From a virus (taxonomy: Duplodnaviria > Heunggongvirae > Uroviricota > Caudoviricetes), in the IMG/VR virus record IMGVR_UViG_2718218135_000001, positions 32,001 through 96,000 of that record: 64,000 nt of DNA; one strand, 5' to 3'. Made by a program: the position numbers and the translations under genes. Positions 48,341 to 53,280 of the stretch are shown piece after piece. A model generated the notes under the pieces. The model saw only the letters and a list, made by a program, of their open reading frames with translations, had not been told where the DNA came from and ran no database searches. Every line of letters starts with the position of its first letter. The stretch's first letter is position 1.

Positions 48341-49351
48341 TTAGTCGTAGGATACGGCAAATATCGCCTGGCCTTGAACTTCCCCAGGCTGTAAAGCTTC
48401 CTCTTTCACGCGAACGTATTTTGCGGTAATCGGGAAGATGTACTGTTCCTGAATAGCCGCCATTTTAGGTAATCTGTTCATCAGGGTATCGCCCAGCTTT
48501 AACGGTGTCGTTGCATTACCATTGTAAATCTGGAACCCTACACCCTTAGCACCATCGGACAATGTATTTTTCAATATTGTTCCACTATCATCCCACACAC
48601 CACGCTCAACTTTAAAAGTCACTGGATTAGTCGTGACGTTATAGACACTATCGCAATTTAGGACCAGATCTACAGAACCTGATTTTGAGTTATTGGCAGA
48701 TAGCATCTCACTTATCGTTGTTTCTGGTATTCTTATTTCGTAAGTCGGTTGCGAGAAACGACAGGTTGTGGGTTTGTGTTTAACAGTAATGGTTAGTTTT
48801 TGTTCGTAAGCATCGCCTTTATTTAACAACCCCAATAAATTGCACAATATCCATGAAAAAATATTTGAACTGCATTGATTATCAGATAAAAAGTTACCCG
48901 CTGGCTTTTTTAATTCGAATGAATCCCCCTCTACCGCTTCACCATGATCACTTCTATATGTAGTTGGTGGTATATATGAGGCCGTTAACTTCAGTTGTTT
49001 ATTATTAATGGTATCAGCAACAGAATAGGTTTTAGGCGACAGAAGCGAACCACTCGTTTCTACAGGAAATCCATCAGCCTCAAGCTTTAATTTAATAAAA
49101 ATAGACTTATTGCTGGAGCCATCTTTCATTTCAACAATATAGTCATCTAACGTTGTTGCAAAATACATCTTATCCCCCCTCGAGTTACATTCATAAGATC
49201 CTTGCAGGTTGGGATTAAAACTTACTATTGTTGAATCCCTTGTTAAGTCCAGTGTAATTGGTTGAGTTGCTGTCCAAGTTCCCTTAGGGGTACATTTCGC
49301 CTGCCCAAAAAATGGAATAATCAACAAAAACAAAAACCAATATTTCTTCAT
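48341..49351 (-). CDS. fimbrial adhesin / minor subunit
   Basis: signal peptide MKKYWFLFLLIIPFFGQA; last gene of chaperone-usher operon. Confidence 0.6.
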   Translation of the reverse strand: MKKYWFLFLLIIPFFGQAKCTPKGTWTATQPITLDLTRDSTIVSFNPNLQGSYECNSRGDKMYFATTLDDYIVEMKDGSSNKSIFIKLKLEADGFPVETSGSLLSPKTYSVADTINNKQLKLTASYIPPTTYRSDHGEAVEGDSFELKKPAGNFLSDNQCSSNIFSWILCNLLGLLNKGDAYEQKLTITVKHKPTTCRFSQPTYEIRIPETTISEMLSANNSKSGSVDLVLNCDSVYNVTTNPVTFKVERGVWDDSGTILKNTLSDGAKGVGFQIYNGNATTPLKLGDTLMNRLPKMAAIQEQYIFPITAKYVRVKEEALQPGEVQGQAIFAVSYD

Positions 49352-49361
49352 AAAAAATCCT

Positions 49362-51854
49362 TTAACGACAAATATAAACTTTATTCTCTTCGATAACTTT
49401 ATCAAAGGTAATAGTACAGAATTGTTCCTGCTGTTTATTAACCGAGACGCGAATCGATGCGGGAACATCATCAGTGCGAATAAATATCCGACTTCCCTGT
49501 CCTACCAAGCCCACATTCTTACCGCTTTCATCTTCAACTTCATAACCGAACGATAATGGAGAACCATCCGGGCGCTGAGCAAGGAAATACCAGGGTTTAC
49601 GTTTGTCAGTATCAAACTGCGTCATCACAACGGCCCCACGATAAGGAGCGGTGCTTTTACGGTTGCCCAGTAGTGCCACATCGCTTTGACTGTCAGAAGT
49701 ATCCAGCATCAACGTGTTTTTACGATACGGCGTCAGGCTGTCATAAATAGCGTAACCTCGGCTATCCGTGCTCAGGTAACGATACCCCTGTACCGCAGCC
49801 CCATCCAGCCCCGGAGCATGGACGATGGTAAATGTATCTGAAAGTCTGGGAGCCAGTGCTATCCCGTCTGACCACGCGACTAAACCACCTTGAATATTAC
49901 CACTTATCTGTTGATATTTTTTCGACTGGCTATAGCTGCCACCAATGGTAGCCACTGGCGCACGCCAAATCAGATTTCCACCTGCTGTTGCTTCGCTGTC
50001 CTGTTGTTGATGGCTAAAGTTAGCCCCGTAGCTGAACTGATCACGGTTCCCAGCTACACCACTGAGGCGGGTAGTATTTGACTGGTAGCCGTCTTTATCA
50101 AATGTGGTCGAGTTAGAGATAAATAAATCTCGTCGTTTTTCGGTGATATTATCACGCCACGAGAAGGGGATTGAGAAAAATAAGTTAATGCGTCTGTCTT
50201 CGCTGTTATCCTCATCGTATGTCTGGCTAACCGACAAGGTATAACTTAGACGTTCCCATGAGTTCGTATAGCTTAGTTGGTAATTTTTCCCTGTCCCGCT
50301 ACGTTCCCAGTAATCTCGCCATTGACCGCTGATCGCCAGATACCCCCAATTTTCCGGTAATGACTGGTTGATATTTAAAGAAAAGCTATTCTTGCGACCA
50401 AAATCATACTGGTAGTAGTTGGCAATGTCATAGCCTGAGTTGTCTTCTCGATTGTATCTATTTTTGTTATTTGCCCATACATGATCGTTAAAAGTACGAT
50501 AACCCCGAGAGGAATAACGCCAGGCCGCCAGAGAAAATTGTGTTCCGCTCTGAGAGAGATATTTATTCCAGGCAATCTGATAACTTTGACCGTTAAACAC
50601 ATCACCGTTGTCTTGCTTGCTGTATGAATGGGTAAAATCAACCGATATAGCACCAATCGGTGTATTCCATCCTGTTCCAAGAACAAACGATGAGTAATTA
50701 TCAGATAACAGCGTGCCGCCATAACCTGTCAGCAAATTGTTGAAACCATGCTTATAGCTTCCCTGGATAAAATCAGATTGATTGCTGGCTCCTTCAATAT
50801 GACTACGTCCGGCTGAAAATTCATATTTAGAAACGCCAGGTTGCAACATATTTGGCACCGATGAATAAGGCACCCGATAGTACGACGTTGAACCATCAGC
50901 TTCTTTGACGATAACTTCCAAATCTGCCCCACCATTAGAAAGTTGCAAATCATCAATGGCGAATGGGCCTGGCGGTACTTCTTTCTGGTAAACCACAAAA
51001 CCATTTTGTTCTATGGTGACGAGTGCGTTACTCTGGGCAACGCCGCGTACCACAGGAGTAAAATTCTGTTTAGAGTTCGGTAACATCTGCATATCGCGCC
51101 AAAGGCGCACGCCGCGAAAACGCACGGAGTCAAAAACATCAGAACCAGTATACATTTCACCTGCGCGAAACGTGCCGAGAATTTGTGGAATTCCACGTTC
51201 CAGATATAGCGTGTTACTCTTCCATTTACCGCTGTTTTCGTCGCTTTTCGTATAATTGGCATTTGAATGCAGCTGCCAGCCCAGGAGATTTAACCCACTG
51301 TTCAGATTTAGATAGCTACTTTTATCATCTTCGCCGTTTTTATAATCACTGTAATACTGACTGGCATAATAAGATGTATATAATGCGTTAATCCCGCGAT
51401 CCCATGCTTCAGGCGGAACATAGCCATGTTCATATTCCAGAACATAGGCTTGGGGCACGCTTAATTTTAGGTTAAAATGCCCAATATCATAGTCGACGCT
51501 GCCTCCCTGGACAGCATCCCGAAGTGGTACACATTCTACGCCTTTATCGATACTAATTCCTTCAGTGAGGATCCCAATTTGCTTTAATTGCTCCATGGAT
51601 AAACATGTTGCATTAGGGTCATCTTTAATATCAATATCATAGTGGCCACGCCATTGATTATTCAGATAAACATCCATAGCGTAGATACCCGGCATCGGCT
51701 TATCACTATCAATATGGTAGTTAGAAATTTTCTCCCCATTTAAACCACCAATCATAAAATTGGTATTAAACGTTTCACCCTTAGCCCATGTATGCGAAGT
51801 CGCTAATACTGACAGAATAGCCAGTGTAATAGAATTAAACTTTGACATAACCAA
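49362..51854 (-). CDS. fimbrial outer-membrane usher
   Basis: 830 aa, signal peptide, position between chaperone and adhesin. Confidence 0.85.
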   Translation of the reverse strand: MVMSKFNSITLAILSVLATSHTWAKGETFNTNFMIGGLNGEKISNYHIDSDKPMPGIYAMDVYLNNQWRGHYDIDIKDDPNATCLSMEQLKQIGILTEGISIDKGVECVPLRDAVQGGSVDYDIGHFNLKLSVPQAYVLEYEHGYVPPEAWDRGINALYTSYYASQYYSDYKNGEDDKSSYLNLNSGLNLLGWQLHSNANYTKSDENSGKWKSNTLYLERGIPQILGTFRAGEMYTGSDVFDSVRFRGVRLWRDMQMLPNSKQNFTPVVRGVAQSNALVTIEQNGFVVYQKEVPPGPFAIDDLQLSNGGADLEVIVKEADGSTSYYRVPYSSVPNMLQPGVSKYEFSAGRSHIEGASNQSDFIQGSYKHGFNNLLTGYGGTLLSDNYSSFVLGTGWNTPIGAISVDFTHSYSKQDNGDVFNGQSYQIAWNKYLSQSGTQFSLAAWRYSSRGYRTFNDHVWANNKNRYNREDNSGYDIANYYQYDFGRKNSFSLNINQSLPENWGYLAISGQWRDYWERSGTGKNYQLSYTNSWERLSYTLSVSQTYDEDNSEDRRINLFFSIPFSWRDNITEKRRDLFISNSTTFDKDGYQSNTTRLSGVAGNRDQFSYGANFSHQQQDSEATAGGNLIWRAPVATIGGSYSQSKKYQQISGNIQGGLVAWSDGIALAPRLSDTFTIVHAPGLDGAAVQGYRYLSTDSRGYAIYDSLTPYRKNTLMLDTSDSQSDVALLGNRKSTAPYRGAVVMTQFDTDKRKPWYFLAQRPDGSPLSFGYEVEDESGKNVGLVGQGSRIFIRTDDVPASIRVSVNKQQEQFCTITFDKVIEENKVYICR

Positions 51855-51865
51855 TCCCTGATAAT

Positions 51866-52546: not shown

Positions 52547-52601
52547 GATAACAATCCTTGCGATTGAAAATCGGCGACCGAAGCCGCCGATAAACATCAT
52601 G

Positions 52602-53150
52602 TTAATCTGTTACAACGGTCATTGTTATCGCAGAACTAACTTCGCCAGTACCCACATCATCAGCTGCTTTTGCGTATTGCGCCGTAAAATGCAACTCATA
52701 TTCACCATTAGTAGCTGGTGGTAACTTAATAGGACTATTACCAGAAATCCGGTTGCTAGAATCAGTACCTTTCCCCAAAAAAACAGCGAAACCGACACCG
52801 CTAGCATCACCAGTATTGCGAGTAACATTTGAACCCGTTCCTTCAAATTGGGTGCTGGAGAAGGTAATTCTTGGTTCTTTTTTTCCGGGACATTTAACTT
52901 TTAGTGGTAAAGATGTTGTATTTGAATAAGTGGTAACGGGGGAGCCAACTTCTACATTTTCAAATTGATCACGACCAATTTCGCTCATCGAAATTGTTGT
53001 ATTCTCACTACCGCTCAGGAACTGACATGTAGTCTCTGTGACTTTACCGTTAATAGTTAACTGACCCTCTGTACTCCCTTCTGCTGCAAATGATCCTGCG
53101 CTCATAAAAAGAGATGCTAATACAGTAGCCGCAATAACTGAACGTTTCAT
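52602..53150 (-). CDS. major fimbrial subunit
   Basis: 182 aa, signal peptide, Cys pair, first gene of operon. Confidence 0.8.
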   Translation of the reverse strand: MKRSVIAATVLASLFMSAGSFAAEGSTEGQLTINGKVTETTCQFLSGSENTTISMSEIGRDQFENVEVGSPVTTYSNTTSLPLKVKCPGKKEPRITFSSTQFEGTGSNVTRNTGDASGVGFAVFLGKGTDSSNRISGNSPIKLPPATNGEYELHFTAQYAKAADDVGTGEVSSAITMTVVTD

Positions 53151-53280
53151 AGACTAATCCTTAACTAATTTGCTTTAACTAAAAAAGAGATCGCAATCTC
53201 TTGCTAATAAATTACTAAAAATAAAAATGATAGAGCAATATAAAAGAATATTTTTTATTTTAATCAAAAACATTTCCATG

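Follow-up and report, generated by a model that had tools for sequence, protein, structure and literature searches.

Among the pili assembled by the chaperone-usher pathway, Yeh and Yhl have been described with their gamma-4 placement and their ligands, YehD binding pectin and YhlD binding colonic mucosa (PMC12778044). On the side of mobile elements, pilus-assembly genes (PapC/PapD) have been noted in SSU5-type phage-plasmids, and the available text of that article mentions fimbriae, adhesins or ushers nowhere beyond this phrase (Pfeifer et al., 2021; PMC7969092). We analyzed a stretch of 64,000 nucleotides from the viral record IMGVR_UViG_2718218135_000001 (positions 32,001 to 96,000; hereafter the window, to which all positions refer), which carries a four-gene fimbrial operon beside a Phd-Doc toxin-antitoxin pair. 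The interval 47475-54377 (~6.9 kb) is very probably an acquired block, in which a P1-derived Phd-Doc pair is joined to an operon of the gamma-4 Yeh/Yhl/Stc group related to the Citrobacter yeh locus, and it occupies a variable slot of an SSU5/pHCM2-like phage-plasmid. As pilus-assembly genes had already been noted in the SSU5-type family, the finding is fairly ordinary in itself; RefSeq annotates the fimbrial genes of the block in dozens of plasmids, and it lies in the plasmid-like, variable portion of the genome, as do the accessory ("shell") genes of SSU5/pHCM2 as far as the available text of the same article describes them. The block fits the known accessory genomes of phage-plasmids and does not overturn the current understanding. 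A literature search found no paper on the operon type, the junctions and the anatomy of the insertion sequences (IS), the linkage to Phd-Doc or the chromosomal twin in pheU islands.

On the minus strand between 48341 and 53150, four successive open reading frames (ORFs) encode, in the order of transcription, a major subunit, a chaperone, an usher and a two-domain tip adhesin (Table 1). ORF analysis, Pfam and NCBIfam agree in this, and the complete chaperone-usher operon in canonical order that the initial annotation had placed on this strand at 48341-53280 is borne out. In detail, all three usher domains lie on the single ORF of 828 amino acids (aa) (PapC_N, E 1e-33; Usher, E 6e-184; PapC_C, E 9e-10), which is 62% identical to YehB of K-12. 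The chaperone is 51.5% identical to K-12 YehC and keeps both cleft residues (Arg8 and Lys115 of the predicted mature protein, equivalent to Arg8 and Lys112 of PapD); in PapD, the cleft arginine and lysine anchor the C-terminus of the subunit. The major subunit is 34% identical to K-12 YehD, and the adhesin combines an N-terminal receptor-binding domain of ~185 aa with a C-terminal pilin domain. N-termini resembling signal peptides were read directly from the sequences. Frameshifts, against which the initial annotation had cautioned, are not seen: none of the four ORFs has an internal stop, all are annotated as intact in other plasmids, and the lengths of usher, chaperone and adhesin (828, 226 and 336 aa) equal those of the native Citrobacter homologues. 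With a three-domain usher, a chaperone with its cleft residues, a pilin and a two-domain adhesin, the operon is intact, complete and of the classical chaperone-usher type.

Table 1. Features of the fimbrial block and its borders in the window; L numbers denote compared loci.
Feature	Position	Strand	Basis
ISEhe3-like (IS3-family) right inverted-repeat end, last 51 bp	47424..47474	+	92.5% identical to ISEhe3 3' end in phage SfIV
pdcA' remnant, first 75 nt of the P1 gene downstream of doc	47476..47550	-	PGAP pseudogene in a 99.6%-identical plasmid; ~91% to P1
doc toxin, 125 aa	47558..47935	-	Pfam Fic/DOC; TIGR01550 DOC_P1 124 bits (cutoff 38.65); ~91% nt identity to P1 doc
phd antitoxin, 73-75 aa	47935..48162	-	Pfam PhdYeFM_antitox; TIGR01552 45.7 bits (cutoff 20.8)
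Terminator-like hairpin, 11-bp stem and T-run	48277..48313	-	28 nt past adhesin stop codon; consensus scan
Two-domain tip adhesin, 336 aa	48341..49351	-	C-terminal pilin domain, Pfam Fimbrial E 2.6e-13
Outer-membrane usher, 828 aa	49362..51848	-	Pfam PapC_N, Usher, PapC_C; NCBIfam NF011763 1453 bits (cutoff 933)
Periplasmic PapD-like chaperone, 226 aa	51866..52546	-	Pfam PapD_N E 4.5e-40; NCBIfam NF011764 388 bits (cutoff 372)
Major fimbrial subunit, YehD-type, 182 aa	52602..53150	-	NCBIfam YehD equivalog 197 bits (cutoff 136)
Native 5' region of the operon	53151..53280	-	Aligns with yehE-yehD intergenic regions of K-12, Citrobacter and the second plasmid allele
IS2-like element (IS3 family), 1025 bp	53281..54305	-	Both inverted repeats, CATGG flanks; 82-85% nt identity to true IS2 of LD27-1
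Second CATGG (54306-54310) and 67 bp of further native upstream DNA	54306..54377	-	Collinear with uninterrupted FG92-1, 91%
IS1 terminal fragment, 32 bp	54378..54409		90-94% identical to sequences beside IS1 (L002, L006, L007, L010, L011)
ISEhe3-like first 437 bp, left inverted repeat and truncated orfA	54410..54846	+	92.7% identical to ISEhe3 1-437; Pfam HTH_Tnp_1

With Yeh (yehDCBA of K-12), Yhl (phylogroup E) and Stc of Salmonella, the operon shares the four-gene layout, and three of its proteins (usher, chaperone and major subunit) score above the cutoffs of the NCBIfam Yeh-family models, whereas it has no yehE and resides on mobile DNA instead of at the yeh locus. The grouping of the usher with YehB, YhlC and StcC follows from the NF011763 match and the identity to YehB, not from an usher tree, and the minimal four-gene order matches the layout given in PMC12778044. 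An assignment to E. coli Yeh proper, i.e., as an orthologue of yehDCBA, fails, as the adhesin family models are not passed and the locus is on a phage-plasmid. By these comparisons, the operon can be classified as a further member of the Yeh/Yhl/Stc (gamma-4) group with an adhesin head of its own and not as an orthologue of E. coli Yeh. The adhesin is 24% identical to K-12 YehA and only 13-15% identical to the solved heads of YehD and YhlD, and it found no match among the PDB sequences at E<=1, whereas the control K-12 YehA does find 9N4G. An AlphaFold2 model of the adhesin reached a pLDDT (predicted local distance difference test) of 83. Foldseek matched the whole model to FimH, FocH and PapG, and among structures consisting of the head only the best matches were YhlD (8V9V, TM-score 0.66) and YehD (9N4G, TM-score 0.63) at E ~1e-6. 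Helices at residues 158-161 and 164-172 precede the last strand at the place where the alpha-helical flap of YhlD and YehD sits, with a pLDDT of only ~60 in this part. As the sequence search against the PDB gave no link to YehD and YhlD, we draw it from the fold comparison, by which the head is predicted to share the Yeh/Yhl fold with a different sequence. Because of this difference in sequence, the head probably recognizes a ligand other than those of the Yeh and Yhl heads. The best native homologues of the adhesin are found in Citrobacter (71%), where the gene order metG-mrp-yehE-yehDCBA-rcnB corresponds to the synteny of yeh in K-12, and Salmonella enterica (among others its subspecies salamae and diarizonae) has homologues at 66-69%. 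The closest native relatives of the operon thus lie at the yeh locus of Citrobacter.

The replicon around the operon can be assigned by its gene content to the SSU5/pHCM2-like phage-plasmids of E. coli, because it unites SSU5-like virion and replication genes and is collinear with the plasmid pEC21Z137-115K. SSU5 structural genes from terminase to tail cover 81% of positions 9001-34000 at 89.6% identity, and the helicase, primase and ligase genes around the fimbrial block are ~91% identical to those of Salmonella phage SSU5. Collinearity with pEC21Z137-115K extends over the entire window at 96-99% identity; this nearest complete plasmid has annotated genes for terminase, portal, capsid, tape measure and tail fibre and is typed as IncFIB and non-mobilizable. 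Homology to SSU5 ends at 47399 and resumes at 54874, and in SSU5 itself the slot between primase and ligase holds a single hypothetical gene of 321 aa. Among the 404 PLSDB plasmids with an SSU5-type primase (41 of them at >=99% identity), only 22 have the fimbrial block at the primase-ligase site and ~95% are without it. Other relatives fill the same slot differently: with a sulfatase, an anaerobic sulfatase maturase and IS5 in pYLPI6a (L008 3149-7142), with Hok, a YgiW/YdeI-family protein and IS5 in pRHB03-C12_2 (L010 1-7945), and with a DprA-like gene, a RecQ-family helicase of 1558 aa and a hypothetical gene of 162 aa in pLAO18 (L009, NZ_OP242248, 1730-7874). Since the operon is missing from SSU5 and from most relatives, and since the contents of the slot differ among them, the operon is cargo, as the initial annotation had proposed, and the slot is a hot spot for cargo in which the operon is not ancestral. 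The lower GC content noted before was also confirmed by the composition check: the operon has 42.0% GC, compared with 48.8% in the rest of the window and 51.1% in the morphogenesis region 9001-34000, and at third codon positions its genes have 27-41% against 53-64% in backbone genes.

An operon ancestral to SSU5-like phages, or alternatively a chimera of the assembly, would have only the presence of the operon in the window in its favor. The absence of the operon from SSU5 and from ~95% of the plasmids with an SSU5-type primase, a GC content foreign to the backbone overall and at third codon positions, and identical junctions in at least 25 independent complete assemblies refute this explanation, which retains practically no probability. 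The sequence with all four genes annotated as intact occurs in at least 22 complete PLSDB plasmids and in 25 RefSeq E. coli plasmid records, and because the same intact sequence is present in so many complete plasmids, the operon is not an artefact of assembly. Some of the records carrying the block are far above the 103-115 kb of SSU5-like elements (NZ_CP110979, 188 kb; NZ_CP139126, 218 kb; NZ_CP100937, 252 kb; NZ_CP100967, 324 kb), which suggests that these are cointegrates of the phage-plasmid with other plasmids and too large for packaging.

The view that the operon is bounded by IS remnants stands, with corrected borders. On the left, the 51-bp ISEhe3-like remnant abuts the stop codon of the primase gene; on the right, the slot ends with the IS1 end and the 437-bp ISEhe3-like left end. 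These border pieces recur without the fimbrial block: the 51-bp remnant is followed by different cargo in pLAO18, the IS1 end is shared with pYLPI6a, which has no fimbrial block, and the 437-bp piece is present in both plasmids with other cargo. The two ISEhe3-like remnants lie on the plus strand with their outer tips toward the cargo and are therefore inside-out relative to a single insertion. A composite transposon of ISEhe3 was ruled out, as only 51 bp and 437 bp remain in this inside-out arrangement; a tandem dimer or a decayed composite might be the origin of the frame. In pLAO18, identical ISEhe3-like tips frame the DprA/RecQ-like cargo, which may be a cassette for defence or DNA processing. 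Because the same two tips surround this unrelated cargo with junctions at the IS termini, the comparison points to an exchange of cargo mediated by IS ends.

The operon had been described as lying between phd-doc and an IS2-like element. The positions hold (47558-48162 on one side, 53281 on the other), whereas phd-doc is itself imported and is not a landmark of the backbone. The two genes are adjacent, overlap by one base and both exceed the cutoffs of their family models, as expected for a type II toxin-antitoxin system of the Phd-Doc type. Similarity to P1 covers 717 bp (47477-48193, ~91% nucleotide identity) comprising doc, phd and the start of pdcA, and ends at 48193. Unlike Phd-Doc in P1 itself, the pair stands apart from the rest of P1, breaks off within pdcA and is fused to fimbrial genes; its two settings are an SSU5-type element and the pheU islands. 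The island setting is seen on the chromosome of E. coli LD27-1, where a pheU (tRNA-Phe) island aligns with window positions 47475-54270 at 96.5% overall, the fimbrial proteins being 98-99% identical and the IS part only 82-85%. The order in this island is integrase, IS fragment, pdcA', doc, phd, the four fimbrial genes and IS2, and the same arrangement of the block is present in HeN100, in HCP6S3_I2 and in a draft genome with an adhesin variant of 91% identity; across 5426 genomes, 83 chromosomal occurrences of the operon were counted. A search for the same junctions in relatives had been suggested as a check: the junction from phd to the adhesin is identical between the phage-plasmid and the chromosomal pheU islands, and the IS2-like junction recurs in 25 plasmid records. 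The identical pdcA'-doc-phd-fimbriae junction in the islands ruled out phd-doc as a backbone landmark, and Phd-Doc is part of the imported unit.

The chromosomal copies retain 102 nucleotides of pdcA and are cut there by a different IS3-family element, which looks IS911/IS600-like by eye. As pdcA is cut at different lengths by different IS elements, the phage-plasmid and the chromosomal contexts look like separate captures from an unseen donor. A P1-like donor carrying fimbriae next to phd was considered and dropped, since no such element was found in the phage and plasmid collections searched. Some neighbors of the chromosomal copies deserve mention. In the pheU island of HeN100 (L011 13406-17348), the block adjoins pieces of defence systems, namely a dptF fragment and the RADAR gene rdrB, and at two further loci (L012 and L017) its neighbors are a DEAD/DEAH helicase, a methyltransferase and an AIPR-family protein. 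E. coli YY76-1 carries both forms together, a copy with the IS2-like junction on the plasmid NZ_CP040928 and a copy with the true IS2 junction on the chromosome NZ_CP040927; such double carriage would be an opportunity for recombination between plasmid and chromosomal blocks.

The insertion of an IS2-like element upstream of the operon, also part of the initial annotation, is supported by its inverted repeats, by the CATGG duplication and by an uninterrupted counterpart in strain FG92-1, and position 53280, at which the annotated interval ended, is the last base before the IS. On the minus strand, the element runs from TAGACTAGCCCC... (54305), its left repeat, to ...GGGGCAATCCA (53281), and its right repeat reads TGGATTGCCCC...; the right inverted repeat points at the operon 130 bp 5' of the start codon (IS end 53281, ATG 53150). 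One copy of the target-site duplication (CATGG, 53276-53280) forms the last 5 bp of the native 5' region, and the remaining 125 bp can be aligned with the yehE-yehD spacers of K-12 and Citrobacter over their conserved, promoter-proximal part. Conserved blocks and the palindrome AGAGAT-TGCG-ATCTCT are shared in this alignment, which also includes the second plasmid allele. In the IS-free strain FG92-1, 53151-53280 is contiguous with 54311-54377. The reconstructed empty site matches a single uninterrupted sequence at 91% identity, which proves a simple insertion of the IS2-like element 130 bp upstream of the ATG. The element has IS2-type inverted repeats and a 5-bp duplication but no intact orfA and orfB: an internal deletion of ~305 bp joins the left repeat straight to the C-terminus of orfA and takes out the orfA promoter and N-terminus, orfB is frameshifted, and PGAP records a frameshift and an internal stop. 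Because of the internal deletion and the frameshifted orfB, the element is non-autonomous.

Its junction was found in plasmids only (the 25 RefSeq E. coli records), whereas the true IS2 of the chromosomal copies and of some phage-plasmids (L018) has its junction 4 bp further in, with the same orientation and with GAGAT as its target. The IS2-like and the true IS2 insertions are two independent events. A simple 5'-truncated remnant identical to the chromosomal IS, which the overall match of 96.5% had suggested, was ruled out by the 82-85% identity and by the presence of both repeats. The IS-free island form of HeN100 was likewise ruled out as the ancestral empty site, since it has an unrelated integrase-fragment flank and keeps "ATCCA"; FG92-1 represents the true empty site. 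On the FG92-1 chromosome (L020 5082-9749), a remnant of a pheV island holds only the yehD-like first gene with the uninterrupted upstream region, adjoins a cluster of a cellobiose-type phosphotransferase system and glycoside hydrolase genes, and is cut by IS5; it may be the trace of an earlier context of the operon.

The location of the IS raises the question of whether the operon is activated by it, either through an outward -35 element that contributes to a fusion promoter or by cutting off upstream silencing, as at bgl. Fusion promoters formed by the right end of IS2 are known at ampC, acrEF and neoR (PMC9330008), and the insertion described here resembles them in its terminal repeats, its 5-bp duplication and the right end toward the genes; it differs in that the element shares only 82-85% identity with IS2 and has undergone an internal deletion and frameshifting, and its role as promoter is only putative. 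Two IS2-family insertions 4 bp apart (CATGG and GAGAT), both with the right end toward the operon, would fit activation, as would a -35-like TCCACA across the IS tip at 16 nucleotides from TAAAAT, the "ATCCA" kept in the IS-free island forms, which is consistent with a leftover IS2 tip, and the observation that an uninterrupted upstream region was found only in a decayed copy with the first gene alone. However, the promoter match is weak (9/12) and such matches are not enriched, by our own reading the 4-bp shift in the true-IS2 lineage spoils the same spacing, the target preferences of IS2 could account for the coincidence, and the same orientation in two events is expected by chance in 50% of cases. 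Activation by the IS is therefore unlikely. An extension of this idea holds that IS2-family insertions ~125-130 bp upstream are a recurrent, selected switch for an otherwise silenced Citrobacter-type Yeh operon, and that the block, pre-activated and linked to Phd-Doc, moves back and forth between pheU islands and an SSU5-like phage-plasmid that is infectious, so that infection by itself would confer a new gut-adhesion specificity on E. coli; we consider this improbable and offer it as speculation.

The reading as an acquired Phd-Doc and gamma-4 fimbrial block has to be weighed against several observations that speak against it. The major subunit has no Pfam match even at E<=10, including Pfam Fimbrial, so that Pfam was unsuccessful as identifier and the identity came from NCBIfam. 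The adhesin scores only 23-24 bits with the NCBIfam Yeh-type adhesin models (cutoffs 395-452), and yehE, the 5' neighbor of native yeh operons, is missing from the block. A comparison of the fimbrial operon with 50,697 phage records at megablast sensitivity gave no match. The scan for sigma-70 promoters found 14 sites where 15.6 are expected by chance, and the terminator consensus scan found 8 sites in the region against 7.5 expected; as both counts are at chance level, no promoter was called. Finally, the yeh operon of K-12 is regarded as cryptic under laboratory conditions.

Some of these points bear on a further explanation, according to which the fimbrial genes are unexpressed, confer no phenotype and are kept by their linkage to Phd-Doc in a recombination-prone slot. 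Such a silent passenger is compatible with the heavily IS-scarred region, the loss of the native distal upstream region and of yehE, a promoter signal that does not exceed chance, and the invariable linkage of phd-doc to the operon in both genomic contexts; the plasmid and chromosomal copies are too close to each other to be informative (dS ~0.01, with noisy ratios of nonsynonymous to synonymous substitution rates, dN/dS). More can be learned from a second allele of the yeh-like operon on IncF plasmids such as the conjugative pEC416_1 (L006 2291-7099) and on the SSU5-like pYLMB53a (L007 8460-13384). It has the same gene order at ~85% nucleotide identity (usher 89%, chaperone 84% identical) but differs in the head of the adhesin (only 47% identical), is flanked by IS1 and has no phd-doc; in pYLMB53a it lies at another site, adjoining repA. 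Relative to this allele, the assembly genes show purifying selection, with dN/dS values of 0.10 (usher) and 0.12 (chaperone), and the surface-exposed subunits have higher values of 0.31 (adhesin) and 0.56 (major subunit). Low ratios for the assembly genes argue against silent carriage, as do the integrity of all four ORFs across at least 25 plasmids and the chromosomal copies that were examined, the adhesin variants at 91% and 83% identity that are still full length, and the independent acquisition of a related operon at another site of another SSU5-like plasmid. We therefore regard silent carriage as possible but doubtful. Because the second allele occupies a different site in pYLMB53a, Yeh-type operons entered SSU5-like elements at least twice.

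If the acquired block is functional, established knowledge of chaperone-usher pili would predict that the four proteins are exported by Sec, that the PapD-like chaperone caps the subunits via donor-strand complementation, and that the usher polymerizes a rod of YehD-type subunits with the two-domain adhesin at its tip, while Phd-Doc would stabilize whichever replicon holds the block. Expression, an adhesion phenotype and transfer in virions would likewise have to be assumed for lysogenic conversion by the operon-bearing phage-plasmid, which had been proposed initially and seems plausible. Should the operon be both expressed and packaged, its E. coli hosts would acquire a second pilus of the Yeh type whose adhesin head differs, and the element would clearly exemplify the spread of a colonization factor by a phage-plasmid, whereas attention has so far been mostly on antibiotic-resistance genes. 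Furthermore, the anatomy of the locus illustrates how SSU5-like elements take up cargo, with one IS-framed slot and varied contents, and the same combination of addiction and adhesion genes is found on chromosomal tRNA-Phe islands and on a phage-plasmid.

Some additional features were observed in the backbone of the window. A second toxin-antitoxin pair at 40781-41579 on the minus strand consists of a DUF1778 (TacA-like) antitoxin and a GNAT acetyltransferase (TacT-like) toxin, identified by the annotation of a near-identical plasmid together with matching ORFs of the window. At ~60067-60074, 433 bp are missing in comparison with pEC21Z137-115K (locus L001 18675-19107), where they span the boundary between a hypothetical gene and the gene for a YafO-family toxin, and the YafO-family toxin-antitoxin locus appears to be deleted or disrupted in the window; an ORF for a tyrosine integrase follows this site at 60379-61482. 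Two segments, 6413-8215 and 37159-38426, have no match in the otherwise collinear closest plasmid. The second of them lies inside a tail-fibre gene (ORF 35507-38614), which is consistent with variation of the host range.

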